The notes under the pieces: generated by a model
What the model was told of the DNA's origin: nothing
Databases searched by the model: none
Seen by the model: the letters and a program-made list of their open reading frames with translations, nothing else
Part shown: positions 1-15,797 of the stretch, in pieces
Layout of the letters: each line of letters begins with the position of its first letter
How positions within the stretch are numbered: position 1 is the first letter of the stretch
NCBI GenBank assembly: GCA_035411425.1
Contig: DAONSX010000001.1
Span: 1,678-65,677, forward strand
DNA length: 64,000 nucleotides
Direction: 5' to 3'
Origin: Bacteroidales bacterium
GTDB taxonomy: Bacteria > Bacteroidota > Bacteroidia > Bacteroidales > TTA-H9
Made by a program: the position numbers and the translations under genes

Positions 1-3000
1 TGCACGGTGGCAATTATTTGTGAACCATCAGGCGGAAGCTGATATAATGGCTGTTTGTGACGCAAGCGATTTACAGCATCCCAAAACTTGACCATCTCAA
101 ATTTTAGATTCCCTTCTACATCTTTGTAAATAATGCAATGATGATTATTTCTGGGATCAACATAGCAATTTATATTTGGCTTTAATTTAACAGCATTTCC
201 CTTATATTCAAAAATTCTAACTGTATATACAGGAACAGGATCACCTCCTTTGCGATTTGGAAGCCGTATAGCAGGATTTTTATCCTTATCGAAAAAGAAG
301 CCATTTGGGATATTATAAGGTTTTGAAATATCGATATTAAATACATTTTGAAGTCGGTTTTCAATTAGCTTCTTAATAGTAGTATCAACGATTTTCGCTA
401 CGTGTTTATGATCTTTTATTTCGGTAATATTACATCTTACATGATATTGTTGTGGTTTAATACCTGGTAGATATTTAGCAGCCGATACTATTTTACCTTC
501 TCCCTGGTCAAGAATATAACCTCCATAGAATGTATCTTTGTGAAGTTGCCCTTTTACCGAATATCCTTTGGAAACATAAGTATCATGATTTTTACGAATT
601 CTCTTATAAACAGGCACCAAAACTCTATAGTTAGTTCGATAAGATACCAAAATTTTTGAAATTGCTTCTTTTACAGCATTTTGAAAGTGTGGGTTAGGTT
701 GTTCGAATTTGGGTTTTGGAGCCAAATTACGTTGTTTATTTTTGAGATTACCAAAATAAGTAGATAGTTTTTGATAGTAACTTGTAGTAGCAGAAGCAAT
801 TACAATGGCGTCAATGGCATGATGACGCTGGTCTTCACGATTTTTCTTCGGATCAATAATAATTTCTCCCGTCTCGGTATCCACCCTAATCAAACTTTCA
901 ATTATTTTTTCGTTATTATTTTTATCGATAATGGGCTTAGGATTTTCAATAGGTTGAAAATTAATGATTTCCTGTATTTTAAAATAAATAAAGTAACGCC
1001 CTGGTGCAACATCGGCTTTTAATTTCCAATTGTAGTCCATATCGGGACAAAATATGCCCTGGCTATCCACAGTTCCATTTAGTGTATAATAGTTTTCAGG
1101 AGGACGAGGTAAATTAAGTGCCGGTAAAAAATCAGCATTATTTACATCAAAGTCTAATAATGCAGTATAAAACCCGTTGATTAGTTGAGCTTCACAGGAA
1201 TAAATGGATGATATAAATTTTTGATTTGAAACTCTACCTTGGATGCTTATTTTATTTTCATTCTTTCTATTATCATTAATATCATTTTGTTTGATTTCAG
1301 CTTTGATTACAGGAATTATAGCCCAATAATATCCATCTTCTATTATTTTGTTCGTATTGAAATTAATTCCATGACTTTCGTTAATGAATCTTTTTTTCTT
1401 GAGATTACCCTTAATAATTATTACATTTTCGCTAATTTGGGGTTGAGGAGTAAACCTTGGAATGAATTCCTGTGCAGCCTGAGCTTTTATAAAGGCCCAA
1501 TATTTCCCAGTTTCAAAGCCATTTGCAGGAATTTTTAGTGAGGCATAGTATTTACTATCTGATTCAAAATAGAATTTATTCCCAGTCTCTTTTTTTATTT
1601 CACCAGGTATGGCTAACTCATTATCCATTGGTATGGGTTTGAAATTTATTTTTGGGATGGCTTTTTTAACATGATTGTTTTCATCAACGATAAGATAATG
1701 AATAGTTGGTTCGCTTTCGTTTATATTTAAATCATTCAAGGGAATATCGGTTATAGGTTCACTAAGAATATCGTTTAGTCCCCATAATCGGCGTAAATCG
1801 GCTATAAGTTGGCCAGGGAATGACCTAACGTCGTCGCATATTTCCCTTAAGATTTGTACTGATTTTTTGCTGATATAACGTGTGTCGTTGAGTTGTCGTT
1901 GAATAAAATCGTCAAGCATAGCGGGTTTTTTTGAAGTAAAACGCCTTGCTTTTTTATAGGGCAAGATTTGGAAGACTCTTTGCTCGATTTCTTCCCATGA
2001 ATCAGCATTCCATAAAGATTTACTACTGTTTTTTAAATAAAACTGATAAGGTGTCAATTCACCTTTCGAACGATTGAAATTGGCTTCACATAGAGTTTTA
2101 TTTCCGAATGAATCGTCTAAACTAACGGAATAGGGTATAATATGTTCAATTTGGAAAAAATTATGAGGCCCAAGCAAATCGGAAAGGCGAATGGTTTTAC
2201 CCGTATAGGGACAGATTACGATACCATTTTTCTGTTCGATTTCACTATAAAGTAGATACTTAATGATGTTATCACGTGAAGGTTTTAAGCCTGCTTCAAT
2301 GATTCTTTCGCGAGCTTCCTTATTTTTTTGTTCATTAATTGCATTTTCTTTTCTGATTTCCTGTCGCCTTTTTTTATTGTTTTTCAAATCGCGTCCAACC
2401 TCAACATGGATGCGATCAAAACAGAAATCTGGCCCAAATTCGGGCATACTACGATATTTTTTCAGTAGATAATTTACGAGCCGGCGCATTTCATTTAGCC
2501 CAATTTGGACAAGTGGATTTCTTAAATTCTCGACAGGTGAAATGTAATCTCCCTTTTTCTCTGGACCTACCTCCCGACTGGGATGGTATAATTTTAAAAA
2601 GGCTTTATCATTAGGGTTAAATCCAAAATTATTAACAGTGCTCGAAAGGTATTCTTTTATATTCTGAATAATTTCGCCTTCATGATATTTTTTGCCATTG
2701 CAAAGATCTTTGATAAATTGTTCTATATCACTATGATAATCTTTAAAATATTCCCATCTGCTGCCAAAAGTGTTTTTGATCCCTCCAAGCAAGACGGCTT
2801 GTTGAAAAATAAATCCCTTTTCAAGGAAAGGCAGTATGTTATGAATAGCTTTTAATGAGATTGATGCATACCCATCTTCAAGTGTAATTTTTGCGCTTTT
2901 TTGGGCTTTTTCTTCAGTGAAATGGTATTTTTTTATGAGCCGTTGGGTCAAAAGTTCTTCATCTTCAAAAAACATGAAATCATGCCATATTTCATGTTTA

Positions 3001-4355
3001 TTCTGCACCCATATCTCAGTAGGAAACAAACTTTTTAATTTTTTTATAGTAGGACATCCAGAAACTTTTTGGTCTGCATCGTAATTGAAATATTCATTTT
3101 GCAGCTTTAAGGCATCAATAATAACTTTAAAGTCGAAAACTTTATCCTGATATGATATTACATTTAAAACAGTTTGCCGCTGACTAGCATCAAGCGGTTG
3201 TTCCTTTCGACCGTATCGTATATTATTTATCAATTGCCATGCTCTATATAGTTCGAAATCAGGATGAGAAATTGGACAAGGGGTAGGCCCGGTTTCTATC
3301 CATTTGTTGGTAGTTTTATCAAACATTATTCTCTTTTCGAAAGTACATTTTGACAAAAGATGTTTTTGTGATCTTAATGGCCGTTGCCAGAATAAAAGAC
3401 TATCCTGACTTCTATATAATATTTCATGAGTTTCGTCATTAATTTCGATTCGTCCCCCAAAAAGAGTTTTTAAGGAGATCTGTTGTGCAACTTTTATGGT
3501 TTTCCCAGTAATAGTAACATTCTCAATGCCATATTGCAAGTAAATTTTATTGATTCTTTGCTTATTTCTTTCAGAATCATTATTCCCAGAAAGATGAAAG
3601 GATTTGAATATCGTAACAGTTTTATCATTTAATCCTAAATGTGGAGCTTGTTTTTCCCAAATAGCATGAAATTCCTTAACATACATTTCTCTTAAGGTAT
3701 ATCGGTTACGGGCTCTTAGCGGACGTCTATTCTCATCAGTTCTGTAGATATAAGTCTGATGCTCGGGAAGAATCATTTCATACAAAGTAGTTCCAAGAGT
3801 TTTATTATAACCAATTTCTTTCTCGGTCTCGAGTATACCAATGGTATTATTTTCCCCTTGATAAATCTTTCCTGAATCTTTTCCTTTTCGACTACTGTAA
3901 AAACCCCTTCTCTGAATAAAATGATAAAAGATTCTTCCGAGTTGTTCTAAGCTTAAATCTTCTTCTAATGCTTTTTTCCGCAATGCGTAAGGATTCATTT
4001 TCAACCATTCTATAAACTCAGGATCATTTGGAAACTTTCTTCCATCCGATTTCAATTCATTGTTCCAATTTTTCCATTTTTTCAATGAGTTTAATGATAA
4101 GGGGCACATTTTAAGAGGGATCAATGTCTCAAGTAATTTGATCTTACTTAATCTTTTTCTGTAATAATGTCTCCTGAGTTGTCTTTTTTCTCTTCTCTGT
4201 GCATTTTTTGAAGTCTCTTTTTCCCCCTGTCCTAAATTTTCTACTCCTTCAGGGAAAATTCTAACCCCGCAGTCAATAATTGACGCTTTTTCATCATCTA
4301 CAACTGCCCATCCAATGCTATTGACTCCTAAATCGAGTCCAAGGATTTTGCTCAT
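1..4355 (-). CDS. cas9: CRISPR-associated endonuclease Cas9, type II (II-C-like, long Bacteroidota form); partial, C-terminus beyond left edge (>=1451 aa visible)
   Basis: Hand translation of the minus-strand frame from ATG 4355 to nt 3 gives 1451 codons with no stop. Motifs in order: RuvC-I MSKILGLDLGVNSIGWAVV (D8); Arg-rich bridge helix QRREKRQLRRHYYRKR; LGRIFYHFIQRRGF; LFWQRPLRSQK; RuvC-II DRIHVEVGRD (E652); HNH CPYTGK..QIEHIIPYSVSLDDSFGNKTLCEANFNRSKG (H738); RQLNDTRYISK; RuvC-III RHHAIDAIVIA (H1178, D1182). It is missing from the ORF track because its stop codon lies left of the window. Confidence 0.93.
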   Translation of the reverse strand, partial: MSKILGLDLGVNSIGWAVVDDEKASIIDCGVRIFPEGVENLGQGEKETSKNAQRREKRQLRRHYYRKRLSKIKLLETLIPLKMCPLSLNSLKKWKNWNNELKSDGRKFPNDPEFIEWLKMNPYALRKKALEEDLSLEQLGRIFYHFIQRRGFYSSRKGKDSGKIYQGENNTIGILETEKEIGYNKTLGTTLYEMILPEHQTYIYRTDENRRPLRARNRYTLREMYVKEFHAIWEKQAPHLGLNDKTVTIFKSFHLSGNNDSERNKQRINKIYLQYGIENVTITGKTIKVAQQISLKTLFGGRIEINDETHEILYRSQDSLLFWQRPLRSQKHLLSKCTFEKRIMFDKTTNKWIETGPTPCPISHPDFELYRAWQLINNIRYGRKEQPLDASQRQTVLNVISYQDKVFDFKVIIDALKLQNEYFNYDADQKVSGCPTIKKLKSLFPTEIWVQNKHEIWHDFMFFEDEELLTQRLIKKYHFTEEKAQKSAKITLEDGYASISLKAIHNILPFLEKGFIFQQAVLLGGIKNTFGSRWEYFKDYHSDIEQFIKDLCNGKKYHEGEIIQNIKEYLSSTVNNFGFNPNDKAFLKLYHPSREVGPEKKGDYISPVENLRNPLVQIGLNEMRRLVNYLLKKYRSMPEFGPDFCFDRIHVEVGRDLKNNKKRRQEIRKENAINEQKNKEARERIIEAGLKPSRDNIIKYLLYSEIEQKNGIVICPYTGKTIRLSDLLGPHNFFQIEHIIPYSVSLDDSFGNKTLCEANFNRSKGELTPYQFYLKNSSKSLWNADSWEEIEQRVFQILPYKKARRFTSKKPAMLDDFIQRQLNDTRYISKKSVQILREICDDVRSFPGQLIADLRRLWGLNDILSEPITDIPLNDLNINESEPTIHYLIVDENNHVKKAIPKINFKPIPMDNELAIPGEIKKETGNKFYFESDSKYYASLKIPANGFETGKYWAFIKAQAAQEFIPRFTPQPQISENVIIIKGNLKKKRFINESHGINFNTNKIIEDGYYWAIIPVIKAEIKQNDINDNRKNENKISIQGRVSNQKFISSIYSCEAQLINGFYTALLDFDVNNADFLPALNLPRPPENYYTLNGTVDSQGIFCPDMDYNWKLKADVAPGRYFIYFKIQEIINFQPIENPKPIIDKNNNEKIIESLIRVDTETGEIIIDPKKNREDQRHHAIDAIVIASATTSYYQKLSTYFGNLKNKQRNLAPKPKFEQPNPHFQNAVKEAISKILVSYRTNYRVLVPVYKRIRKNHDTYVSKGYSVKGQLHKDTFYGGYILDQGEGKIVSAAKYLPGIKPQQYHVRCNITEIKDHKHVAKIVDTTIKKLIENRLQNVFNIDISKPYNIPNGFFFDKDKNPAIRLPNRKGGDPVPVYTVRIFEYKGNAVKLKPNINCYVDPRNNHHCIIYKDVEGNLKFEMVKFWDAVNRLRHKQPLYQLPPDGSQIIATV
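845..1775 (-). other. Insertion of about 300 aa within the Cas9 RuvC-III region (between LRRLWGL and NREDQRHHAIDA)
   Basis: W858-G-L is encoded at nt 1784-1776 and H1178 at nt 824-822, so about 315 residues separate motifs that are roughly 10 residues apart in NmeCas9 and CjCas9 as I recall them. The frame is continuous, so this is not an IS or intein-like disruption. It contains three related modules: GKYWAFIKAQ...VIIIKGNL, GYYWAIIPVI...KISIQGRV, GRYFIYFKIQ...KIIESLIRV. Confidence 0.7.
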
Positions 4356-4419
4356 AATTGATTAATTTTTAAATTATTAGATTTAATTTTAGATTTCTGA
4401 GTGTGGTTTGTCCAGTTAA

Positions 4420-4427
4420 TACCTTTG
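4420..4427 (+). promoter_or_regulatory. Candidate Bacteroidota -7 box (TACCTTTG), possible promoter for a long tracrRNA form
   Basis: Exact TAnnTTTG match. A TTTC at 4394-4397 could serve as a weak -33 element. It lies about 62 nt upstream of the anti-repeat element. Confidence 0.35.
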
Positions 4428-4492
4428 TTTTCCTTAGAAGATGGGTTAAAATTAAATATTTTTTATGAAAGTGTTGCATAATAAAAAAGTTG

Positions 4493-4500
4493 TATCTTTG
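4493..4500 (+). promoter_or_regulatory. Candidate Bacteroidota -7 box (TATCTTTG) inside the anti-repeat element, possible promoter for a short tracrRNA form
   Basis: Exact TAnnTTTG match. It would place the transcription start near 4507, giving an RNA of about 86 nt that ends at the T7 tract. Confidence 0.4.
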
Positions 4501-4567
4501 TTGACGAAGATTATTCCAATCTTATCTTATCACAACAAGGCTATATGCCGAAGGACTTAGTCCTATG

Positions 4568-4592
4568 CCCCTGCTTCGGTAGGGGTTTTTTT
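4568..4592 (+). terminator. Rho-independent terminator of the tracrRNA
   Basis: A 7-bp stem CCCCTGC/GTAGGGG (one G-U pair) closes a TTCG tetraloop and is followed by seven T. Confidence 0.8.
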
Positions 4593-4784
4593 AGTTTGTG
4601 ACTTTATCCTTTCCATTTGATCCTACCGGTTAAGTCGGAGATTTATTGATTTAATAAAATCAGTAATCTTCGTGTCGTAGCTCATTTATTAAATTTCTAT
4701 AAAGGTAGCACAAATGTCTTCGTCAAAGATGTTTTTTTGCAAAATTGTCCGGAATCTCTTTGTTTTGCAGAAATTCAGGGTTAG

Positions 4785-5579
4785 ATGTTAATAGATAAGG
4801 ATGAACCAATTTGCTGTTATTTCGAGAATCTTTCGAGATTTGACGGGGAAATTCTGCATTTTGTTTCCACACGAAGGTTTCTAAAAGATCAGCAGTTTTC
4901 CATTTCCTTCAATGGTTCTTTGTCGAAAGATAGAGTAAGAGTAAACCGAAAAGTCCTTTTCTCGAAATTTGGACTCGATGTGAGTAGTTCTGTGTTTACC
5001 ACACAGGTTCATGGAAACAAGGTGGAGCGCATTTCAATAAAAGAGAAGGGCAGGGGTGTCAACGAAGTTTTAAAAACCTGCCTTGGCAGCGATGGCATGA
5101 TAACGCAACATCAGGAGATTTGTCTGGTTATTCAAATGGCTGATTGCGTTCCCCTGTTATTTTTTGATCCTATAAAAAAGGTTATAGCTACTGCCCACGC
5201 TGGTTGGAGAGGAACTGTAATGAAAATTGGCGCAAAAGTTATCGAAGAGTTTCGTAATGTTTACGATTCGGACCCGGCAGATATTTTGGCAGGCATTGGG
5301 CCATCCATCGGGCCATGTTGCTATGAAGTAGGGAATGAGGTCATAAGCAAAGTGGAAGAAGCCTTTCGTGATACCAAAGGCATTTTGCTGAATCATCCCA
5401 AATTTTCTCGGCCCGTATTCGACTTATGGGAAGCCAATCGAAGAATTTTGATAGAAAAAGGCATAAATCCCCGCAATATCGAAATGGCGAACCTTTGCAC
5501 GCGTTGTCATTCAGATATGTTTTTCTCGGCTCGTGCTGGCGATGAAGGCCGTTTTGGTTCTTTCATTATGTTGAAATAA
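4785..5579 (+). CDS. pgeF: Peptidoglycan editing factor PgeF / YfiH (polyphenol-oxidase-like, DUF152) family protein
   Basis: 264-aa ORF with the family motifs HAGWRGT, GPSIGPCCYEVG and CTRCHSDMFFSARA. Confidence 0.85.
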   Translation: MLIDKDEPICCYFENLSRFDGEILHFVSTRRFLKDQQFSISFNGSLSKDRVRVNRKVLFSKFGLDVSSSVFTTQVHGNKVERISIKEKGRGVNEVLKTCLGSDGMITQHQEICLVIQMADCVPLLFFDPIKKVIATAHAGWRGTVMKIGAKVIEEFRNVYDSDPADILAGIGPSIGPCCYEVGNEVISKVEEAFRDTKGILLNHPKFSRPVFDLWEANRRILIEKGINPRNIEMANLCTRCHSDMFFSARAGDEGRFGSFIMLK

Positions 5580-5633
5580 ATATTTCAATCAAGGGAAAAC
5601 AGCAGAATGTTTAGACCGAGTGATGAAAATCTC

Positions 5634-5641
5634 TATTTTTG
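5634..5641 (+). promoter_or_regulatory. Candidate -7 box TATTTTTG
   Basis: TAnnTTTG match 41 nt upstream of the ATG at 5682. Confidence 0.4.
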
Positions 5642-5681
5642 CAACATGAACCAACATTTTACAAACCCAAATTAATAAGCG

Positions 5682-6779
5682 ATGAGAAAAATTTTACTTT
5701 CTGTATTATTGATGTCTTTGGGAGGCTGGTTATCAGCTCAGAGTCTTCAGCTTAAAACCTTGGATGGAAAGTTGATTGCCAATGATGCTACTCTTTATTG
5801 GGGTGGATTGCCCACCGAATATATGGTGGCCAGAATTTTGGTAAGCAATACTTCTACCGAGGCAAAGAATGTTTTCGTGAAGAAGTATGAGGAATTTGCC
5901 GCCAAGGATTCTACTGCAACTTTTTGCTGGGGAGCTTGTTTCCCATGGTTTGTCAACGTAAGTCCCGAAGGCATTGTGATTGATGCTGGAGGCACTTCTA
6001 CTGATTTTACGGCCGATTATGATGCCGGTGGCGTACTGGGTCATACACGGCTGAAGTTTACTTTTTTTGTGGAAAATAATCCCAACGACAGCGTTTCGTT
6101 TCGTGTAGAATTTTCGCCTTCCTACCTTAGTCTGAGAAACACAGAAGATTCCATTCCTACTGCTTCTGTTCTGAATGTTGTGGGCTCATATACGGAGGTG
6201 ATACAATATGATTTGATATTGACCAATCACAGCAAAGAAACGAAGAATGTGAGCATGCACAAGATTCATCTGTCGGTGATTGAGGGTACTGAGATGTATT
6301 TTTGTTGGGGAGATTGTTATCCACCCGATGTATTTGAACTTCCCGAACCCATGGTTATGGCTGCTGGAGAATCATCTCAAGGGCTGAGTGTGGATTATGA
6401 CCCAAAATCGCATTCGGGAACATCAACCATAACCTATGTATTTTATGATTTTGATCATCCCGCTGATTCGGTTTGGGTTGATTTTGCCTTCGATGGTCAG
6501 GCCGCCGGAATCGATTATCTCGCCTCGGATATTTTGAAGATTTCTTACAGAGCTTTTAGTCATGAACTTTTCATCGAATGGGAAAACGAAATTTCATATG
6601 GCAGTAAAAATCTTCAAGTAATTGATATGAGCGGAAAGGTTGTTTTTACAAAAACCTTATCCAGCAATAGCAGGCAGCAAACTATTACACTTCCTTATCT
6701 TTCTCAGGGCATATATATGATTGTAATAAATTTGCCAGACGGAATGGTTTATCGAAATAAATTCCTTATTAGTCGTTAA
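5682..6779 (+). CDS. Secreted protein with a T9SS C-terminal sorting domain and two tandem homologous modules
   Basis: Signal peptide MRKILLSVLLMSLGGWLSAQS. Two modules of about 125 aa each contain FCWGxC(F/Y)P...DYD. The C-terminal ~80 aa (LQVIDMSGKVVFTKTL..GIYMIVINLPDGMVYRNKFLISR) resemble Por/T9SS sorting domains. Confidence 0.6.
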   Translation: MRKILLSVLLMSLGGWLSAQSLQLKTLDGKLIANDATLYWGGLPTEYMVARILVSNTSTEAKNVFVKKYEEFAAKDSTATFCWGACFPWFVNVSPEGIVIDAGGTSTDFTADYDAGGVLGHTRLKFTFFVENNPNDSVSFRVEFSPSYLSLRNTEDSIPTASVLNVVGSYTEVIQYDLILTNHSKETKNVSMHKIHLSVIEGTEMYFCWGDCYPPDVFELPEPMVMAAGESSQGLSVDYDPKSHSGTSTITYVFYDFDHPADSVWVDFAFDGQAAGIDYLASDILKISYRAFSHELFIEWENEISYGSKNLQVIDMSGKVVFTKTLSSNSRQQTITLPYLSQGIYMIVINLPDGMVYRNKFLISR

Positions 6780-6806
6780 ATAATTTTTTATCGTATATTT
6801 TTAAGG

Positions 6807-6847
6807 CTGCCGGAGTTTTAAATTTTTAAATATTCGGCAGTTTTTTT
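6807..6847 (+). terminator. Probable intrinsic terminator
   Basis: Stem CTGCCGGA/TTCGGCAG (6807-6814 / 6833-6840) followed by T7 (6841-6847), downstream of the 5682-6779 gene. The loop is rather long at 18 nt. Confidence 0.5.
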
Positions 6848-6878
6848 GTTTTTTTAAGGAAACTTCTTTCAAAAAAAT

Positions 6879-6886
6879 TATTTTTG
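6879..6886 (+). promoter_or_regulatory. Candidate -7 box TATTTTTG
   Basis: TAnnTTTG match 33 nt upstream of the ATG at 6919. Confidence 0.4.
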
Positions 6887-6918
6887 CTTTAGGATATAAA
6901 TTTTGATTGGTATAAAAC

Positions 6919-7542
6919 ATGAAACCACAGGGAAAAGCGAGTCGGGAAGAGATTTTGGAAGCCGCCCGCAAGGTTTTTATAGAGAATGGTTACGATGGGG
7001 CCCGCATGCAGGAAATTGCCGATGAGGCAGGGGTAAATAAAGCCCTTATTCATTATTATTTTCGGTCGAAGGAAGAACTTTTTCAGGAAGTTTTTTTAGA
7101 GGCCTTTATTAAGGTAGTTCCCTCGGTGATGGTGATTTTAAACTCCGACGAGCCATTGTTCAAGAAAATCGAACAGTTTGTTTCGAAATATCTCGACACT
7201 TTGAATGAAAATCCATTGATTCCGGGATTTATACTTCACGAACTTGCTCATGGCCGCCAGCATATCGATGCCTTGATCAGAGGGACAGGACTAAATCCTC
7301 AGTTTTTTATCAATCAAATATACAGAGAAATTGACGCGGGGAAAATCAAAAACTGCGATCCAACCCAGCTCATCATTAATATCCTTTCCTTGTGTATTTT
7401 TCCTTTTGTTGCTCAGCCTATTTTGAAGGGTGTATTCTTTCGTAACCGGGAAGATGATTACGCGCGATTTATGCTGGAACGCAAGTCGGATGTTGTCAGG
7501 TTTATCATTGCCTCCATCCGTAAACAGCAGGAAGAAAGTTGA
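6919..7542 (+). CDS. TetR/AcrR family transcriptional regulator
   Basis: N-terminal HTH signature GYDGARMQEIADEAGVNKALIHYYFRSKEELF; 207 aa. Confidence 0.85.
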   Translation: MKPQGKASREEILEAARKVFIENGYDGARMQEIADEAGVNKALIHYYFRSKEELFQEVFLEAFIKVVPSVMVILNSDEPLFKKIEQFVSKYLDTLNENPLIPGFILHELAHGRQHIDALIRGTGLNPQFFINQIYREIDAGKIKNCDPTQLIINILSLCIFPFVAQPILKGVFFRNREDDYARFMLERKSDVVRFIIASIRKQQEES

Positions 7543-7614
7543 TTTGAGTTTTTTGGCCGATGTTTCCTCTAAAGAGTTATTCTTTGGGAGTGAGTTGTCG
7601 ATAAAAACCTGTTA

Positions 7615-8739
7615 TTATTTAGGGGCTTTGAGCAATAACCAGATAGCTATAATTCCAAAAAAGATATTAGGAAGCCAGGTAGCCAGCATGGGCGCCATAT
7701 TTCCATAAACCGAGAATTGAGTAGTGATCTGCATGAACAGAATATAAGTAAAAGTAATGCCAATACCGATACCCAGGTGCATACCTGTTCCTCCTCTAAC
7801 TTTTCTGCTCGACAGTGCCATACCAATCAATGTAAGTATGATGGCCGATATAGGTTCGGCTATACGTTTGTGCATCTCCGTCTCGTAATATTTTATCGTA
7901 CTGCTTCCTTTGAGTTTTTCTCTCTCGATGAACGCCTTCAACTCATTGAAATTCATTATCTTCATGTCTTCCTTGTCCACTATGATTTCTGTGGGGCGAA
8001 GATTGAGAGTAGTGTCCTTTTGGCTTCCAAATACCAGGCTTTGCTCAAAGGTAGCTGTATCGATAAAGCGTTCGGTGTAATTGATGATGTGCCATTTCGA
8101 TTTTATTGAATCCCATTTTATCTGATCGCTCATGAGTTTGTAGCTGAGTTTACTGTTTTCTATTCTTTCGATGGTAAAGCGGTAACCGTTTTTTCTGGCA
8201 TTGTCCCATGATTCGAAGTAAACGAATACACCGGGTTCGATTTGTAAGTGAAGATTGAGGGATTTGCTTCGGAGAGGATTCTTGATATATTGTTTTTCGA
8301 AGTCTCTAAGCTTGATGTTTGTATGGGGAATGAGGAAATTAGAGAAATAGAGTGTAAGAATGACGAGGAATGTTGCAGAGATCAAATATGGTTTGAGCAG
8401 TCGAAAGAAATTGATTCCGCTACTGAGCATTGCAATGATTTCGGAGCGTTCGGCAAGTCGTGATGTAAAAAAAATGACGGCAATAAAGGTGAAGAGCGAA
8501 CTGAAAAGATTGATAAAATAGGGAATGAAATTCAGGTAATAATCGAAGATGATAGCTCGCAGAGGTGCTCGTCGGGTTAAGAAATCATCGATTTTTTCGG
8601 AAACATCGAAAACGACGACGATAATGATGAGCAGGCCAATAGAATAGAAAAATGTTCCGAGGAATTTTCGGATAATATAACGATCGATTACGGTGAGTCG
8701 GAATGATATAAAATTTTTCCTCATGAATATGGGATACAA
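7615..8739 (-). CDS. LptF/LptG (YjgP/YjgQ) family LPS export permease
   Basis: 374-aa membrane protein with N-terminal TM helices, a large central soluble loop and C-terminal TM helices, typical of the family. LptF versus LptG is not resolved. Confidence 0.75.
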   Translation of the reverse strand: MYPIFMRKNFISFRLTVIDRYIIRKFLGTFFYSIGLLIIIVVVFDVSEKIDDFLTRRAPLRAIIFDYYLNFIPYFINLFSSLFTFIAVIFFTSRLAERSEIIAMLSSGINFFRLLKPYLISATFLVILTLYFSNFLIPHTNIKLRDFEKQYIKNPLRSKSLNLHLQIEPGVFVYFESWDNARKNGYRFTIERIENSKLSYKLMSDQIKWDSIKSKWHIINYTERFIDTATFEQSLVFGSQKDTTLNLRPTEIIVDKEDMKIMNFNELKAFIEREKLKGSSTIKYYETEMHKRIAEPISAIILTLIGMALSSRKVRGGTGMHLGIGIGITFTYILFMQITTQFSVYGNMAPMLATWLPNIFFGIIAIWLLLKAPK

Positions 8740-8748
8740 AGTGCGAAT

Positions 8749-9891
8749 TTACAATCTTTGACTCAATCGGGGGATCATCAGGTTTTTCCATTCTCCGAAA
8801 TCGCCTTTCATGATATGTTTTCTCGATTCTTCCATCAGCCAGTGGTAAAAGCGAAGGTTATGAAGGCTTGCGACCATGGGGCCGAGAATTTCGCCAGTTA
8901 CGAAAAGATGACGCAGATAAGCGCGAGAATACAAGTGATCTACAAAGGAAGTGCCTTCTTGGTCTATTTGGCTAAAATCGTTTTTCCATTTTTCGTTTTT
9001 AATGTTGATGATGCCCTCCAAAGTAAATAACTGTCCATTGCGGCCGTTGCGGGTAGGAAGTACACAATCGAACAGGTCGATGCCCAGTGCTATGCTTTCG
9101 AGAATATTGGCCGGAGTGCCAACTCCCATCAAATATCGTGGCTTATCGGATGGTAGAATTTGGCAGACTTTTTCGGTAAGTTGATACATTATTTCGGCAG
9201 GTTCGCCTACCGACAAGCCTCCTATGGCATTCCCCGGAGCATTTTTCGAAGCAATGTATTCGGCCGATTGCAGGCGAAGGTCTTCGTAAACACTTCCTTG
9301 AACAATGGGAAATAAACTTTGGTCGTAATGGTATTCGGGCTGGGTTTCGTTAAATCTTTTCAAGCAGCGGTCGAGCCATGAATGTGTTAGTTGCAAGCTT
9401 TTCGAGGCATAATCGTAGGAGCATGGATAAGGAGTGCATTCGTCAAAAGCCATGAGAATATCGGCACCAATAATTCTCTGAATATCAATAACCCTTTCGG
9501 GAGTAAATAGATGGCGAGAACCGTCGATATGCGATTGAAAAACTACACCTTCTGGAGTGAGCTTACGGCGCAAAGCCAGGCTATAAACTTGATATCCTCC
9601 GCTATCGGTCAGTATAGCACCATTCCAGCTGCTGAATCTATGCAGACCTCCTGCTTTCTTCAAAACCTCGAGCCCTGGCCTTAAATATAAATGATAGGTG
9701 TTGCCTAAAATAATAAGGGCAGAGGTATCTTCGAAAAGATCTTTTGCATGAACGGCTTTTACGCTGCCCGCTGTTCCTACAGGCATAAACGCCGGAGTTA
9801 ACACGAGTCCGTTATCTGTATCCAAACATCCAGTTCGTGCTTGGGTTTGACGATCAGTAAATTTTATGTTAAATTTTATCAAAACAGACAT
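8749..9891 (-). CDS. tgt: tRNA-guanine transglycosylase (queuine tRNA-ribosyltransferase)
   Basis: ARTGCLDTDNGLVLTPAFMPVGTAGSVKAV, LGNTYHL, DSGGYQV and MAFDEC motifs; 380 aa. Confidence 0.92.
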   Translation of the reverse strand: MSVLIKFNIKFTDRQTQARTGCLDTDNGLVLTPAFMPVGTAGSVKAVHAKDLFEDTSALIILGNTYHLYLRPGLEVLKKAGGLHRFSSWNGAILTDSGGYQVYSLALRRKLTPEGVVFQSHIDGSRHLFTPERVIDIQRIIGADILMAFDECTPYPCSYDYASKSLQLTHSWLDRCLKRFNETQPEYHYDQSLFPIVQGSVYEDLRLQSAEYIASKNAPGNAIGGLSVGEPAEIMYQLTEKVCQILPSDKPRYLMGVGTPANILESIALGIDLFDCVLPTRNGRNGQLFTLEGIINIKNEKWKNDFSQIDQEGTSFVDHLYSRAYLRHLFVTGEILGPMVASLHNLRFYHWLMEESRKHIMKGDFGEWKNLMIPRLSQRL

Positions 9892-10052
9892 TTATTTTAA
9901 GGCTGCAAAATTAATGTTTACGTGTCTTTTTATCGAAAGCGGTTTCCCAAGCGGTGTAACTTATCAACAAATTGTTCATAATTTTGGAGGGAGTTTTCAT
10001 TTTCCAGCAACGGCTTTTGAATAATTTTGCAGCAATCATCATACTCCGTCTT

Positions 10053-11186
10053 ATGGATTTTAATAACCTTCCCCAACTTCCTTATTTCTGGCTCTTTATT
10101 ATTTATTCAAGTGTAATTATTATCCAGCTTTTCTATTATTGGGGTATATTCATTCGTTTGGCCTTCCACAATTATAGACCTGCTATTATTGAGCAATGGC
10201 CGGAGGTGTCTGTAGTAATTTGCGCCCGAAACGAATACGAAAATCTGAAAAAGAATCTGCCTTATATTTTAAATCAGGATTATCCTGTTTTCGAGGTGGT
10301 TGTGGTAAATCATACCAGTGATGACGATAGCCTTTATGTGTTGAGGAATTTTCAGAAAGAATACCCTAATCTTTCGATTGTGAATATCGAAAAAGACCTG
10401 AATTTTTTCTCGGGCAAGAAATTTCCATTAAGCATTGGTATAAAATCGGCAAAACATGAAATTATACTGCTTACGGATGCCGATTGTCGTCCCGCTTCCG
10501 CCCAGTGGATCAAGACCATGGTATCGGCTTATACCCATGAAACCTCGGTCGTTTTGGGATATAGTGGCTTTTACGAAACCAAGGGACTCGGGAATATCAT
10601 TCAGCGTTTCAATGCCTTCCATACGGCTTTGCAGTATCTTTCGCTGGCCATGGCAGGGATGCCCTATATGGGAGTGGGTCGCAATTTGAGCTATAAGAAA
10701 TCGCTGTTTTATCAGGTAAACGGTTTTATTTCGCATTATTCTCTCGAGTCTGGCGACGATGATTTATTCATCAATCAGGTAGCTACGAAGAGCAATACTC
10801 GTTGCAGTCTCGACTCTGCTTCGTTTACCTTTTCGTCAGCCAAGAAAAACTTCAGGGAATGGATTCGACAAAAACGCAGGCACCTGACTACAGGCCTGCA
10901 TTATAAACCTTGGCATAAATTCGTGCTGGGCTTATATTCCCTGAGTCAATTCCTCGTATTTTTCTTTTTCATTATTTTGTTATTGCTCGGATTTCCATGG
11001 CCATTAGTAGTTTCAATGTTCATATTACGCCTAATAAGCCAGTTAGTTATCTATGGCAATGCCATGAAAAAACTTCAAACAGGTAAATTATTGTTAATTT
11101 CGCCAATTCTGGAATTCATCGAAATGATCGTACTCCATTACGTGGTATTGACCAATCGTTTTGTTAAAAGAAAGCAATGGAAATAA
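10053..11186 (+). CDS. Family 2 glycosyltransferase, membrane-bound
   Basis: VSVVICARNEYENLKKNLPYILNQDYPVFEVVVVNHTSDDDS and LLTDADC motifs plus C-terminal TM helices. The track ORF starts at TTG 9972; ATG 10053 (MDFNNLPQ) is the more likely start. Confidence 0.75.
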   Translation: MDFNNLPQLPYFWLFIIYSSVIIIQLFYYWGIFIRLAFHNYRPAIIEQWPEVSVVICARNEYENLKKNLPYILNQDYPVFEVVVVNHTSDDDSLYVLRNFQKEYPNLSIVNIEKDLNFFSGKKFPLSIGIKSAKHEIILLTDADCRPASAQWIKTMVSAYTHETSVVLGYSGFYETKGLGNIIQRFNAFHTALQYLSLAMAGMPYMGVGRNLSYKKSLFYQVNGFISHYSLESGDDDLFINQVATKSNTRCSLDSASFTFSSAKKNFREWIRQKRRHLTTGLHYKPWHKFVLGLYSLSQFLVFFFFIILLLLGFPWPLVVSMFILRLISQLVIYGNAMKKLQTGKLLLISPILEFIEMIVLHYVVLTNRFVKRKQWK

Positions 11187-11797
11187 GTACAGAATTCACC
11201 GAAAAGGCCAATCGAGATTATCAATGGATACAGCAAGCCTTGCATGGGGGCGACCAGCGTGCTTATGCAAAATTAATGGACAATTACCGCGAATCGTTGT
11301 ATTATCTTATGCTGAAAATGACCAACGATGTGGACGATGCCGAAGATATGATGATGGAAGCTTTTAGCAAGGCATTTAAAAATCTCCACCAGTATACTCC
11401 TATCTATGCATTTAGTACCTGGCTTTTTAGGATTGCTGCCAACAATTGCATCGATTTCATGAGGAAGAAGAAGAATACCTTGTCGCTGGATGCTTCTAAT
11501 TATACTTATAATTGTGATGATACGGGTTTTGATCAACTTTCGTGGGGTTTACCCGATGACTGCCTTGACCCCGAACAAGCTCTCATGAAAAAACAATCCA
11601 ATCAATTTCTCCGTGAGATAGTCGATCAACTTAAACCAAGGTATAAACGCTTGGTGCAGATGCGTTACTTTCAGGAAATGAGTTATGAAGAAATTTCGAC
11701 TGAACTCAATATGCCCTTAGGTACGGTTAAAGCTCAACTCTTCAGAGCTAGAGCACTTTTATCGGGCATCCTGAGTCAAGTAAAACATATACCGTAA
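11177..11797 (+). CDS. RNA polymerase sigma-70 family (ECF-type) sigma factor
   Basis: Region 2 (FSTWLFRIAANNCIDFMRKKK) and region 4 (QMRYFQEMSYEEISTELNMPLGTVKAQLFRAR) signatures. Overlaps the upstream gene by 10 nt. Confidence 0.85.
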   Translation: MEISTEFTEKANRDYQWIQQALHGGDQRAYAKLMDNYRESLYYLMLKMTNDVDDAEDMMMEAFSKAFKNLHQYTPIYAFSTWLFRIAANNCIDFMRKKKNTLSLDASNYTYNCDDTGFDQLSWGLPDDCLDPEQALMKKQSNQFLREIVDQLKPRYKRLVQMRYFQEMSYEEISTELNMPLGTVKAQLFRARALLSGILSQVKHIP

Positions 11798-11846
11798 TTT
11801 AACGAATTTTTTTATTTTTACGATTCGAATCAATTGCATTATCATT

Positions 11847-13856
11847 ATGGATAACACCGAATTCAAGAATCAAATTCTGCAGGGTATTCCGGATGAACTC
11901 CCTTTGCCCAAACCTTACGATCCTAACATAAATCATGCTCCAAAGCGTAAGGATATATTAACCAAGGAAGAAAAGAAATTAGCCGTTCGTAATGCGCTAC
12001 GATATTTTCCAGCAAAGCATCATGCTGTTCTGGCGAAAGAATTTGCCGAAGAATTGAAGCATTATGGCCGAATTTACATGTACCGTTTTCGTCCTGATTA
12101 TAGAATTTATGCTCGCCCTATCTGGGAATACCCTGCTCAAACTCCTCAGGCTGCCGCCATCATGCTGATGATTCAGAACAATTTGGATGAAGCCGTAGCC
12201 CAGCATCCTCACGAATTGATCATCTACGGAGGCAATGGAGCTATTTTTCAGAATTGGGCACAATATCTCCTCACCATGAAATATCTGGCTACTATGACCG
12301 ATCATCAGACTTTGGTGATGTATTCGGGACATCCTTTGGGATTGTTCCCTTCTCATCCTGAAGCACCTCGCGTAGTAGTTACCAATGGAATGGTTGTGCC
12401 CAACTATTCCAGTCCTGACCATTGGGAAAAATTCAATGCACTTGGAGTATCCCAATATGGGCAGATGACCGCCGGTTCATACATGTATATTGGTCCTCAG
12501 GGAATTGTGCATGGTACAACGATTACCATTATGAATGCCAGCCGGAAAATATCTCGTAAAGATTCGGCTTCAGAAATGAAATTATTTGTTTCGAGTGGTT
12601 TGGGAGGCATGTCGGGTGCGCAACCAAAAGCAGGGAATATTGCAGGCGTAGTGAGCCTGGTGGCCGAAATCAATCCCAAGGCAGCTTACAAGCGTTTCAA
12701 CCAAGGCTGGGTAGACGAAGTGATCGATGATGTAGAAAAGGCTATTCGAACTGCTTTGCATTGGAAAGAAATGGGTAAGCCTCATTCGATTGCTTATCTG
12801 GGGAATGTGGTCGATTTATGGGAAAGGCTTGCCATCGATGATATTCACGTAGATATTGGTTCCGATCAAACTTCTTTGCATAACCCCTTTGCAGGTGGTT
12901 ATTATCCGGTCGGTCTTTCTTTCGAAGAATCACAGGAAATGATGGTTAGCCAGCCCGAAGTTTTCAAGGAAAAGGTAAAAGCGTCACTGCGCAAGCAAGT
13001 GGCAGCCATCAACAAAATTGCAGCTAATGGAATGTATTTCTTCGATTATGGCAATGCATTCTTATTGGAATCGGGCAGGGCAGGAGCCGATATCTTCAAT
13101 GCAAGTGGAAATTTTATTTATCCTTCGTATGTTCAAGATATTATGGGGCTATTGTATTTCGATTATGGTTTTGGTCCGTTTCGTTGGGTGTGCACCAGTG
13201 GCAATCCGGCCGATCTGGACAAAACCGATCAGATTGCCGGAGATATTTTCGAAAAAATGCTCACAGATGCTCCTGTCGAGATTCAGCAACAGTTGAAGGA
13301 CAATCTTTTATGGATACGTCAAGCAAAAACCAATAATCTTGTGGTAGGTTCTCAGGCCAGGATCTTATATGCCGATGCCGAAGGGCGCATTCGTATTTCG
13401 GAAGCCTTCAATCAGGCCATCGCCAGAGGAGAAATTTCGGCTGCCATAGTTCTAGGACGAGATCATCACGATGTTTCGGGTACTGATTCTCCCTTCAGGG
13501 AAACTTCGAACATCTATGATGGTTCATCATTTACGGCCGATATGGCTGTACAGAATATGGCAGGAGATTCTTTCAGAGGTGCCACTTGGGTTTCGCTTCA
13601 CAATGGCGGAGGTGTTGGCTGGGGTGAAGCCATTAATGGAGGTTTTGGCCTTGTTCTCGATGGAACGGCTGAAGCCCAGCACCGTCTTAGATCCATGCTC
13701 TTCTGGGATGTAAACAATGGCATTGCACGGCGTTCATGGGCACGTAACCAGGGCGCTATGCTCACTATCCAAAAAACCATGCAGCATGAACCCCACTTGA
13801 AAGTTACGCTTCCTAATCTGGTCGATGATAACCTGATCGAAACTCTCGATTTTTGA
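11847..13856 (+). CDS. hutU: Urocanate hydratase
   Basis: 669-aa ORF with urocanase signatures (GGMSGAQPKAG, GSDQTSLHNP, RDHHDVSGTDSPFRETSN). Confidence 0.9.
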   Translation: MDNTEFKNQILQGIPDELPLPKPYDPNINHAPKRKDILTKEEKKLAVRNALRYFPAKHHAVLAKEFAEELKHYGRIYMYRFRPDYRIYARPIWEYPAQTPQAAAIMLMIQNNLDEAVAQHPHELIIYGGNGAIFQNWAQYLLTMKYLATMTDHQTLVMYSGHPLGLFPSHPEAPRVVVTNGMVVPNYSSPDHWEKFNALGVSQYGQMTAGSYMYIGPQGIVHGTTITIMNASRKISRKDSASEMKLFVSSGLGGMSGAQPKAGNIAGVVSLVAEINPKAAYKRFNQGWVDEVIDDVEKAIRTALHWKEMGKPHSIAYLGNVVDLWERLAIDDIHVDIGSDQTSLHNPFAGGYYPVGLSFEESQEMMVSQPEVFKEKVKASLRKQVAAINKIAANGMYFFDYGNAFLLESGRAGADIFNASGNFIYPSYVQDIMGLLYFDYGFGPFRWVCTSGNPADLDKTDQIAGDIFEKMLTDAPVEIQQQLKDNLLWIRQAKTNNLVVGSQARILYADAEGRIRISEAFNQAIARGEISAAIVLGRDHHDVSGTDSPFRETSNIYDGSSFTADMAVQNMAGDSFRGATWVSLHNGGGVGWGEAINGGFGLVLDGTAEAQHRLRSMLFWDVNNGIARRSWARNQGAMLTIQKTMQHEPHLKVTLPNLVDDNLIETLDF

Positions 13857-13886
13857 AATTTTTCTTTTACTCTCAAGCTACAACCT

Positions 13887-14630
13887 ATGAAGATAGCAGG
13901 CATCATTCCTGCAAGATATGCTTCGACAAGATTTCCGGGTAAACCTCTGGCTGATATCAAAGGCAAAAGCATGATAATGCGAGTTTATGAACAAGCTGCA
14001 AAAGTGCAAAAACTCGATGAGGTTGTTGTGGCTACCGACGATCAACGCATTTTCAAACATGTAATCGAAAACGGTGGCAAGGCCGTGATGACTTCTCCTG
14101 ATCATCCCAGTGGAACCTCTCGCTGTGCCGAAGCAATCAAACTTATCAGTCGGAATGATCACTTCGATTCAGTAATAAATATTCAGGGTGATGAGCCTTT
14201 TATACGGCCCGAACAGATTGGAAGAGTTGCCCAACTGCTCTGTCGCAATGAAGTACAAATAGCCAGTTTATACAAGAAGATTACTACGGCAACCGACTTA
14301 TTCGATCCAAATATAGTCAAAGCCATTGTTTCTAATCAGGGAAAGGCTTTATATTTCTCGCGCCAAGCGGTTCCATTCGTTAGAAATGTGTCAATGGAAA
14401 AATGGCTCGAATTGACTGTTTTTTACAAGCATATCGGCATATATGGATATAGAGTTGATACTCTATTCCAAATCATTCAATTACCCGAATCGCCATTAGA
14501 AAAGGCTGAATTACTGGAACAGCTTCGATGGCTTTATCACGGTTTCGACATTTACATGGAGGAAACTCATTTCGAGAGTTTTTCGATTGATACTCCCGAA
14601 GACTTATCAAAATTTATGAACAATTTGTAA
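13887..14630 (+). CDS. kdsB: 3-deoxy-manno-octulosonate cytidylyltransferase
   Basis: MKIAGIIPARYASTRFPGKPLADIKGKSMI and NIQGDEPFI motifs; 247 aa. Confidence 0.9.
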   Translation: MKIAGIIPARYASTRFPGKPLADIKGKSMIMRVYEQAAKVQKLDEVVVATDDQRIFKHVIENGGKAVMTSPDHPSGTSRCAEAIKLISRNDHFDSVINIQGDEPFIRPEQIGRVAQLLCRNEVQIASLYKKITTATDLFDPNIVKAIVSNQGKALYFSRQAVPFVRNVSMEKWLELTVFYKHIGIYGYRVDTLFQIIQLPESPLEKAELLEQLRWLYHGFDIYMEETHFESFSIDTPEDLSKFMNNL

Positions 14631-14649
14631 ATCTCCCGAGAAGTTTTTT

Positions 14650-14657
14650 TAAATTTG
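14650..14657 (+). promoter_or_regulatory. Candidate -7 box TAAATTTG
   Basis: TAnnTTTG match 25 nt upstream of the ATG at 14682. Confidence 0.4.
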
Positions 14658-14681
14658 TGAGCAAAGATTTCAAATTCTTTT

Positions 14682-15797
14682 ATGGAAGAAGGAGAACTTT
14701 ATACTGAAATAACGAAATTAATTGTCGATTTGTTACCATCGAGCGGATGTATGATTATTCCAGATGTGGGTGGTTTTATTACCTACAATGTTTCTGCTCG
14801 AATCGATCAGACATCGAATCGTATTTATCCACCTTCGGGAAGGGTTGGTTTCAATTCTGCTTTAAAGGTAAATGACGGGCTTCTGGCATCTCATTATGCA
14901 CTGCTTAAGGGAATCAGTTATCCACAGGCTCTCGATAAGATTCAGCGATTTACATTTTACTGTATTTCTGAGCTGAATGCGGGAAAAATTCTGCATTTCG
15001 CTTCATTGGGCAATTTGCGACATGACAATACGAAGAATTTAATTTTCGAACCCGATCCTCATACCAATTTTCTCGATGATGCCTTTGGCCTTGCTCCCGT
15101 GTCGGCAATGCCGGTTCGCAGAAAACTTGCAGAAGTCGGCTCGATGGCTCACAATAGAAAACATTTCTCCCGATTTCGGACACATAATGTTGCAGAAGGA
15201 CTGAAATGGACACTTATGATATTGCCTATATTACTGCTGGCACTGTATTCAGTTTATCAAACAGGCGTCCTCGATGGCGTTGTCAATTACTCTTCGTTAG
15301 GTGGAAACATTTCTCAACAACCCATCGACGAAAAAGCAATTTCAAACCCATATACCATTGAACCGAGAATTCCTCATATAGAAAAGAAGTTTCAACCCGA
15401 AGAATATTCACTCAATAGAATTCATGATGCTTTTACAGATACTGTTTTCCCAGTAATCGTGCTCAATGCTGATATAATGCGTATTTCATCTTCGAAGGAA
15501 AAATCACAGGATCGTTTTGACGAATACAATGCCAAAGTATCGGTAACAGACGAAAATTCTATGGCATCTTCGCAGCGATTCCATCTTATTGCCGGGTGTT
15601 TTAAAGACATCAATAATGCCTACCGGCTCAGGGACGAGCTCAGGCAAAAAGGGTTCGACGCAACTTTGGCAGGTACTTCTTCCTTGGGGCTTACAAGAGT
15701 GAGCATCGCTTCGTTTTTTTCGAAACAGGACGCTCAGCATGCACTCAACGAATTCAAAACAAAATCATTTCAAGATTTGTGGATTTTGAAGATTTGA
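14682..15797 (+). CDS. SPOR domain-containing membrane protein (HU-like N-terminal domain)
   Basis: The C-terminal ~75 aa (RFHLIAGCFKDINNAYRLRDELRQKGFDATLAG..RVSIASFFSKQDAQHALNEFK) look like a SPOR peptidoglycan-binding repeat. There is a central TM helix (WTLMILPILLLALYSVY). Confidence 0.65.
   Translation: MEEGELYTEITKLIVDLLPSSGCMIIPDVGGFITYNVSARIDQTSNRIYPPSGRVGFNSALKVNDGLLASHYALLKGISYPQALDKIQRFTFYCISELNAGKILHFASLGNLRHDNTKNLIFEPDPHTNFLDDAFGLAPVSAMPVRRKLAEVGSMAHNRKHFSRFRTHNVAEGLKWTLMILPILLLALYSVYQTGVLDGVVNYSSLGGNISQQPIDEKAISNPYTIEPRIPHIEKKFQPEEYSLNRIHDAFTDTVFPVIVLNADIMRISSSKEKSQDRFDEYNAKVSVTDENSMASSQRFHLIAGCFKDINNAYRLRDELRQKGFDATLAGTSSLGLTRVSIASFFSKQDAQHALNEFKTKSFQDLWILKI

Follow-up and report, generated by a model that had tools for sequence, protein, structure and literature searches.

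The 64,000-nt stretch of Bacteroidales DNA analyzed here (contig DAONSX010000001.1, positions 1,678 to 65,677; hereafter the window) begins with a minus-strand cas9 gene that runs off its left edge. Collectively, the gene, its neighborhood and its counterparts on identical contigs make it very probable that this region holds the effector gene and the trans-activating CRISPR RNA (tracrRNA) of a complete, naturally active CRISPR-Cas9 system of subtype II-C in an uncultured Bacteroidales bacterium, with a new module inserted into the RuvC-III region of the enzyme. As a gene, this is an ordinary and already deposited Cas9; the point of interest is a widespread Bacteroidota clade whose Cas9 contains a ~300-aa domain without known relatives.

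A Cas9 gene across the left edge of the window

An earlier note on this DNA had described a minus-strand frame open from an ATG at 4355 down to nt 3, and translation of this frame yields 1451 codons without an in-frame stop. The listing of open reading frames (ORFs) for positions 1-4784 contains only ORFs of ≤99 aa, four of them ≥60 aa, in agreement with the four short ORFs counted in the note. The cas9 gene is absent from this listing because its frame runs off the window edge, and the program omits frames that run off the sequence end. The stop codon, which the note had placed to the left of the window, was recovered there. The missing parts (the end of cas9, as well as cas1, cas2 and the CRISPR array) were read from contigs whose sequence agrees with the window at 100% identity. 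When a segment of the Cas9 was used as query against representative proteins, it retrieved a partial copy (P0121) with 100% identity over 930 aa, which supplies 92 further C-terminal residues, and a protein in the same 90% cluster (P0143, 1543 aa) is 100% identical to all 1451 residues encoded in the window. With the 92 aa beyond the edge, the full length of this Cas9 is thus 1543 aa, larger than SpCas9 (1368 aa), as had been claimed from its visible part. The N-terminus, MSKILGLDLG, agrees with the starts of full-length relatives. P0143 is found on hundreds of contigs and has been deposited at NCBI (e.g., HNQ59045.1) from Bacteroidales metagenome-assembled genomes (MAGs); the exact protein is therefore already public, labelled Cas9, Csn1 or 'HNH endonuclease domain-containing protein.' The ORF read by hand thus proved real, and the case illustrates how even a gene of 4.6 kb may escape an ORF track when it lies at the edge of a window.

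Profile searches, which the earlier note had proposed, identify the protein as Cas9. Although 92 aa are missing, the sequence reaches 494.5 bits with the NCBIfam equivalog cas_Csn1 (TIGR01865; cutoff 100); Pfam HNH_4 (67.7 bits) and RuvC_III (89.3 bits) both exceed their cutoffs, and the PADLOC Cas9 models also match. All 43 sequence matches in the PDB are Cas9 proteins, the best of them compact II-C enzymes (E 4e-42). The profile of subtype II-D (NF049971, Cas9d) gives 90.3 bits against a cutoff of 375, which speaks for an enzyme outside that subtype.

In an alignment with 33 relatives, residues D8, E652, H738, N761, H1178, H1179 and D1182 are all invariant. The split RuvC domain is complete, with the catalytic Asp in RuvC-I, the Glu in RuvC-II and the His and Asp in RuvC-III, and the HNH domain lies between RuvC-II and RuvC-III with its catalytic His and Asn, a placement typical of Cas9. 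The motifs with D8, E652 and H738 (Table 1) and the RHHAIDA motif (810-824) are all where the earlier note had found them. Its pairing of H1178 with D1182 needs one amendment: both positions are correct, but alignment of the HHA.DA motif makes the second His, H1179, the equivalent of SpCas9 H983. Similarly, the RuvC-III motifs do follow the canonical order that it reported, but it had passed over the distance from RQLNDTRYISK to RHHAIDA, which is ~350 residues here versus ~56 in compact relatives.

An inserted beta module in RuvC-III

Compared with the solved compact enzyme 9ar4_A (1082 aa), the window Cas9 has an excess of 461 aa, of which 309 form an insertion in RuvC-III, ~145 fall in the REC lobe, 6 in RuvC-II/HNH and 1 in the C-terminal WED/PI region. 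The C-terminal end, which interacts with the protospacer adjacent motif (PAM) and which the earlier note had called still incomplete, is of ordinary length; the excess consists of the RuvC-III insertion together with the additional REC residues. Query residue 861 aligns to residue 710 of 9ar4_A and query residue 1171 to residue 711; these are adjacent in the chain and separated by 309 aa here. The exact junction, ...RWNFN-KNREE..HHAVDA in the 9ar4_A type versus ...LWGLN-(309 aa)-KNRED.RHHAIDA here, places the insertion point between the WGLN strand and the K-x-R-E motif, with its invariant K-x-R, ahead of the catalytic His.

Modelling of aa 845-1200 by AlphaFold2 with 119 relatives gave a confident structure (mean predicted local distance difference test score, pLDDT, 90.8; predicted template modelling score, pTM, 0.79), which is all-beta with four strands in each of four similar units. 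By profile-profile comparison of family alignments, each of the four units is homologous to the others (96.8-98.8% probability, E 2e-10 to 5e-17), and they share the hallmark [IVL]x[LF]xGxVxxGxF ... DGxYWAxhxh; self-BLAST of the insertion alone detects no internal repeat, and significance is reached only with family profiles. This mutual homology indicates that the module arose by tandem duplication of a ~55-aa beta unit.

The module matches no Pfam family and no PDB sequence at E up to 10, and the family profile reaches a best E of 0.45 against the PDB. Similarly, Foldseek with the module model gave no match of E <0.001, either in the PDB or in BFVD (viral predicted structures), with a best template modelling (TM) score of ~0.1, and its top matches (sliding clamps, spike N-terminal domains and propellers) were rejected as noise (TM ~0.1, probability ≤0.12). 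When the module alone was searched against the protein library, only 24 clusters were recovered, all of them Cas9s of the window family except one giant repetitive surface protein (P0137). The latter is a Bacteroidota protein of 2719 aa with >20 near-identical ~100-aa repeats, Thr/Pro-rich linkers and a C-terminal sorting-type domain, and the end of each of its repeats, GRHYIYYKIRDIKD, is similar to the final hairpin of unit 4. We rejected P0137 as a source of the module, the match being a single 'GRxYIYxKIxDI' hairpin summed over 10 repeats with a motif-level likeness to unit 4. A search of open-access papers found no account of a domain at this RuvC-III position, and the supplementary files of a catalogue of 79 characterised orthologues (PMC7606464) include no member with the motifs of the window family. 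The module thus appears to be undescribed and its Cas9 clade uncharacterised, and natural domain gains at this site have not been described for any solved Cas9.

The stretch interrupts a Pfam domain cleanly, as might an intein, another mobile insertion or an assembly error that is not part of the mature enzyme. We regard such an artefact or selfish element as extremely improbable: the stretch keeps the reading frame, hundreds of independent contigs carry it in identical form, all relatives have it at the same site although they are only 29-35% identical to the window Cas9 over its length, and it is modelled as an all-beta repeat fold. Moreover, there is no Pfam intein or endonuclease match (intein splice-junction motifs were not looked at specifically). 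The inserted module is thus better read as a part of the enzyme, and it is present in 120 of the 120 closest relatives, at a length of 296-337 aa.

The distribution of the module was surveyed by scanning one genome per species, which identified >521 Cas9 relatives, and by taking the distance from RQLND.RY to RHHA in the best 80. In 45 loci from Flavobacterium, Cellulophaga, Lutibacter, Cyclobacteriaceae and others, the distance is 56-59 aa and Cas9 has 1120-1155 aa, and in another 29, from Bacteroidales, Marinilabiliales, Draconibacterium and the cultured Flavobacterium orientale, F. alvei and F. piscis, it is 345-359 aa and Cas9 has 1508-1616 aa. Two further loci, L048 (a Bacteroidetes MAG) and L092 (Gracilimonas), have a distance of 112-115 aa and a Cas9 of ~1200 aa; their ~56 extra residues, which contain 'DGEYLA' and 'G.V..G.F,' look like pieces of one unit, and the family profile gives no score to them. 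Forms with two or three units were not found among the best 80 relatives, which argues that the four units jointly build a single closed, cooperative fold rather than lying like beads on a string, an interpretation that also fits the high pTM. With their zero, approximately one and four units, the three size classes offer a clear example of how a domain is born within an enzyme through tandem duplication. Four of the contigs with large Bacteroidota-type Cas9s (L017, L024, L041 and L045) are binned in MAGs labelled Acidaminococcaceae, Neomarinimicrobiota, Thiohalospira or Eubacteriales; since most of these contigs are short, mis-binning is more likely than horizontal transfer.

The site of the insertion suggests what the module could do. 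In SpCas9, K974A and R976A impair only cutting of the non-target strand (PMC5680257). Their equivalents here, K1171 and R1173, are invariant in the family, and the module is inserted where Y973 and K974 would be neighbors in SpCas9. Lying beside these residues, the module would therefore project from the edge of the groove through which the displaced strand reaches RuvC, where it may form an extra rigid, closed and pseudo-symmetric lobe. We tentatively propose, as one possibility, that the module shapes or gates the access of the displaced strand to RuvC, or that it offers a docking surface. Candidate effects include the gating of RuvC until the R-loop is complete, a shift or trimming of the non-target cut, the blocking of RuvC-directed anti-CRISPRs, and the docking of partners such as the adaptation machinery. 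The fuller claim, that the module represents a functional domain new to Cas9, with a fold absent among solved structures, situated at the mouth of RuvC and altering the handling of the non-target strand, is conceivable but doubtful. Should the module indeed modulate the geometry of the cut or the access to RuvC, nature would here provide an instance in which one of the two nuclease sites is regulated, and the site next to the RuvC active site would be permissive for engineered domain insertions.

Several points weigh against a functional module. The equivalence of K1171/R1173 with K974/R976 is based on aligned motifs as opposed to a structure, the placement of the module near the active site follows from the insertion point alone, and Foldseek may overlook repetitive beta structures. 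Furthermore, the module is the least conserved part of this Cas9 (29% identity versus 42-68% elsewhere). It carries a net charge of -7 (family median -6) without a conserved basic patch, so electrostatic binding of DNA is unlikely; a docking surface, or a lobe with a steric or gating role, would be likelier. Its conserved positions are mostly Gly, aromatic residues and Pro, which are structural, and compact sisters of ~1125 aa work without it. A neutral or merely stabilising decoration, in which a surface loop expanded without harm, became fixed a single time in the clade and contributes nothing to the working of the enzyme, would account for low conservation, structural residues and the lack of a conserved charged patch alike, and we hold it to be a serious, if on balance unlikely, explanation. 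Against it, the module has been kept at 296-337 aa not only in all of the closest relatives but also in 29 species genomes from several orders, with no loss of a unit; ~900 nt have been maintained across lineages that are only 35-49% identical, which points to purifying selection on the fold; and the site adjoins residues needed for non-target-strand cleavage (PMC5680257).

Locus, tracrRNA and activity

Four contigs that encode P0143 have the same neighbors as the window (L004-L007), and two of them (L006 and L007) show 0 mismatches to it over 14,355 nt. In all four, cas9 overlaps cas1 by 4 nt and is followed by cas1, cas2, a leader and the array. The cas1 product has 294 aa (Cas1_II, 357 bits) and that of cas2 has 101 aa (Cas2_II, 148 bits). 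After cas2 come a leader of ~130 nt and an array of 36-nt repeats (GTTGTGGTTTGATAAGAAATTGGAATAGAAGACATT, with the repeat start GTTGTGGTTTGATAAGAAATTGGAATA) and 30-nt spacers, with 69, 45, 50 and at least 22 repeats in the identical contigs. The earlier note had recommended a look downstream for cas1, cas2 and csn2 or cas4: cas1 and cas2 are directly 3' of cas9, and neither csn2 nor cas4 is present in these loci, whose flanking genes are housekeeping genes. The lack of csn2 and cas4 beside cas1 and cas2 means that the system is of subtype II-C by gene content (cas9, cas1 and cas2 only). There is also no ORF between cas9 and cas1 in the four loci, which leaves them without the PIN-domain accessory gene pcrIIC1 at that position.

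The window contains a predicted tracrRNA on the plus strand, passed over in the earlier note, within the 429-nt intergenic region upstream of cas9 (Table 1). The element has a fold z of -3.6, ends in a terminator, and is preceded by a box of the form TAnnTTTG, the Bacteroidetes -7 promoter consensus. Its anti-repeat would form a duplex of -28.8 kcal/mol with the 36-nt repeat of the same locus, consisting of three helices with small internal loops between them. The same divergently oriented element is also present upstream of cas9 in L001, L003, L008 and L009, giving five family loci together with the window; across these, RNAalifold predicts 16 pairs, 4 of which keep their pairing through changes on both sides. 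In L003, where the repeat is divergent, the anti-repeat pairs with its own repeat at -26.0 kcal/mol as opposed to -15 to -19 kcal/mol in cross pairings, which indicates that it has co-varied with that repeat. An Rfam scan of the intergenic region found no tracrRNA family and only chance snoRNA-like matches (E ~0.3). Together, these sequence features suggest that the tracrRNA is transcribed.

The arrays show signs of recent activity. Among different samples, the distal spacers are common (spacers 35-67 in L004 and L006, spacers 79-95 in L005 and L007) and the cas2-proximal leader end differs, which points to ongoing acquisition at the leader. Searching metagenomes with the newest spacer retrieved further arrays and three repeat-free, phage-like contigs with a protospacer (L010, L013 and L014), one of which (L013) encodes a phage endolysin (phrog_181, E 9e-61). 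When all 171 unique spacers were compared with these three contigs, six independent spacers (s2, s110/s122, s131, s142, s150 and s163) matched with 0-2 mismatches, and a further one matched with 4. On their 3' side, the seven protospacers are flanked by A at +5 in 7/7, at +2 in 6/7 and at +3 in 5/7, a pattern that random draws from the same contig give in ~0.09% of cases (~0.0009), and their 5' flanks show no pattern; the 3' PAM may accordingly be NAANA, a tentative assignment. On these grounds, the CRISPR system looks active in nature. The whole array had no match among deposited phage genomes, four exact 30-nt spacers had no match in IMG/VR, and comparison of the spacers with the window yielded only chance matches of ≤19 nt, that is, no self-targeting.

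The protospacers recur at a spacing of 66 nt in the target contigs, which was rejected as a CRISPR period: the latest spacer targets a coding tandem repeat of 66 nt (22 aa) in a 246-aa phage ORF (L013:3624-4081, L014:66-342), and the agreement with the CRISPR period (36+30) appears to be a coincidence. A single spacer would therefore have several near-identical target sites per phage genome. Variants of this spacer in two samples, which differ at 2/30 positions, match different repeat copies or phage variants. Within the cas2-proximal arrays of L006 and L005 (locus coordinates from 15997), some spacers are duplicated, spacers 117 and 38 as adjacent duplicates in L006 and spacers 100 and 102 recurring near the end of L005; slippage or recombination between repeats would explain this. 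Every complete array closes with a degenerate repeat (GACTTT for GACATT).

By analogy with canonical Cas9 systems, the anti-repeat of the tracrRNA would pair with the 5' part of each repeat, the dual RNA would load into Cas9, and Cas9 would recognise a PAM 3' of the protospacer, tentatively NAANA, after which HNH (H738) would cut the target strand and RuvC (D8, E652, H1179 and D1182) the non-target strand. The earlier note had likewise taken the protein for a functional dual nuclease and not a remnant, a view that intact catalytic residues, array turnover and phage-matching spacers support. Some considerations temper this picture: the window itself contains no array, cas1 or cas2, all three being on the identical contigs; we infer the nuclease activity, the RNA ends and the PAM; the indications of RNA-guided, PAM-dependent cleavage of double-stranded DNA are indirect, namely the phage-matching spacers and their common 3' flank; and the PAM derives from seven protospacers of one phage lineage. 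The absence of array, cas1 and cas2 from the window could also be taken to mean that the Cas9 is decaying or repurposed, for example a nuclease-impaired binder or an array-less orphan. Such decay is very unlikely given that the catalytic residues are intact and invariant, that identical contigs carry cas1, cas2 and long arrays, that spacers turn over at the leader end between samples, and that spacers match co-occurring phage.

The genes around cas9 offer further context. Its 264-aa upstream neighbor is a Cu-oxidase_4 family protein, and window positions 4785-13856 encode, on both strands, Cu-oxidase_4, Por_Secre_tail (sorted by the type IX secretion system), TetR, LptF/G, tRNA-guanine transglycosylase, glycosyltransferase, sigma-70 and urocanase proteins. 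No mobile-element genes occur among these neighbors, which indicates a stable chromosomal context, common to all four identical contigs. In three other family loci, a homologous ~200-aa protein with 37-46% mutual identity lies between cas9 and cas1 (L003:13381-14007, L008:10849-11430, L009:11662-12303). It has no convincing Pfam family, with one member giving a weak match to IS200-like Y1_Tnp (25 bits), and the overlap of cas9 and cas1 in the locus of the window leaves no such gene there; an accessory role in this Cas9 clade is possible. Additionally, L009 has an IS21-type element (rve transposase and IstB; 12942-15252) between cas9 and a shortened cas1 (206 aa), and its adaptation module is probably disrupted by this element.

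Table 1. Coordinates of the cas9 gene, its encoded domains and the predicted tracrRNA in the window.
Feature	Position (nt)	Strand	Remarks
cas9 coding sequence, codons 1-1451 of 1543	1..4355 (in frame 4355 to 3)	-	last 92 codons and stop left of window
RuvC-I catalytic Asp D8	4332..4334	-	invariant in family
Arg-rich bridge helix QRREKRQLRRHYYRKR, aa 53-68	4152..4199	-	R54, R58, R61, R62, R66 invariant
REC lobe, ~aa 72-600	2556..4142	-	coordinates from alignment to 9ar4_A; weak Cas9_a match
RuvC-II motif FDRIHVEVGRDL	2388..2423	-	catalytic E652 at 2400-2402; translation, alignment
HNH domain, aa 715-770	2046..2213	-	H738 at 2142-2144, N761 at 2073-2075; HNH_4 67.7 bits; invariant columns
RuvC-III N-terminal part, aa 817-861 (RQLNDTRYISK ... 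LRRLWGLN)	1773..1907	-	Pfam, PDB alignment
Insertion module (309 aa), aa 862-1170	846..1772	-	N-terminal hairpin, four homologous beta units, C-terminal hairpin
Unit U1, aa 909-968	1452-1631	-	beta unit of module
Unit U2, aa 974-1025	1281-1436	-	beta unit of module
Unit U3, aa 1031-1080	1116-1265	-	beta unit of module
Unit U4, aa 1086-1137	945-1100	-	beta unit of module
RuvC-III C-terminal part, aa 1171-1245 (K1171-x-R1173, RHHAIDA)	621..845	-	H1179 at 819-821, D1182 at 810-812; RuvC_III profile positions 89-178
C-terminal WED / PAM-interacting region, incomplete, aa 1246-1451	3..620	-	with the 92 residues beyond the edge, about as long as in compact II-C enzymes
Bacteroidota-type -7 promoter box TATCTTTG (TAnnTTTG)	4493..4500	+	equivalent box in 5/5 family loci
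Predicted tracrRNA, divergent from cas9	4506..4592	+	fold, terminator, conservation; 5' end inferred from promoter box
Anti-repeat	4512-4536	+	within predicted tracrRNA
Nexus AAGGCTATATGCCGAAGG	4537-4554	+	within predicted tracrRNA
Second hairpin	4553-4563	+	within predicted tracrRNA
Terminator stem and U7 tract	4567-4586, tract to 4592	+	strong terminator

Comparison with known Cas9 systems

Large II-C enzymes of Bacteroidota have been reported before. CbCas9 from Chryseobacterium (PDB 8iyq, 1442 aa) is likewise a large Bacteroidota II-C Cas9, and it is described as working with an accessory PIN protein, PcrIIC1 (Zhang et al., 2024, as cited in PMC13153721 and PMC12669027). It belongs to a group with long repeats; clade X of the Bacteroidetes II-C systems (Gasiunas et al., 2020) is characterised by repeats of 45-50 bp and a fully complementary repeat:anti-repeat duplex (PMC7606464). 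A similar size, a Bacteroidota host and II-C gene content would be compatible with placing the window Cas9 in this known group, CbCas9 included, but several features make such a placement very unlikely. The window-type repeats are 36 nt long and their duplex is bulged by internal loops, and cas9 overlaps cas1 by 4 nt with no accessory gene between them. At the same RuvC-III site CbCas9 has only ~40 aa (868 aligns to 986 and 1171 to 1026) and no four-unit module, its extra mass lying elsewhere, and the match to it (E 3.7e-27) is weaker than that to compact II-C enzymes (E 4e-42).

SpCas9 (II-A, 1368 aa) has the same catalytic architecture, with K974/R976 in a K-x-R-E motif before the catalytic His as K1171/R1173 are here. 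It differs in the presence of csn2, in its REC and PI regions, and in having no insertion between Y973 and K974, and its sequence similarity to the window Cas9 is detectable only over HNH (E ~1e-10).

Among solved structures, the best matches are 9ar4_A and 8uza_A (1082 and 1087 aa; E 4e-42), which we take, from their sequences, to be Geobacillus-type Cas9. These are colinear with the window Cas9 from RuvC-I to the C-terminal region, and their part after RuvC-III is of the same length (372 versus 373 aa). They have 0 residues at the insertion site, where the window Cas9 has 309 in addition to ~145 extra in REC.

The nearest module-free relatives are the compact II-C Cas9s of other Bacteroidota (~1125 aa), such as those of Cellulophaga baltica DSM 24729 (L054, 1122 aa) and Flavobacterium poyangense (L056), with 36-40% identity over the whole query. 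These enzymes have shorter REC lobes, are ~410 aa smaller overall than the window Cas9, and bear a ~10-aa loop at the insertion site (e.g., WGLN-TILNDENIK-SREDHRHHA). They share with it the RuvC and HNH motifs, including RQLNDTRYISK, WGLN and (K/S)RED.RHHA.DA.

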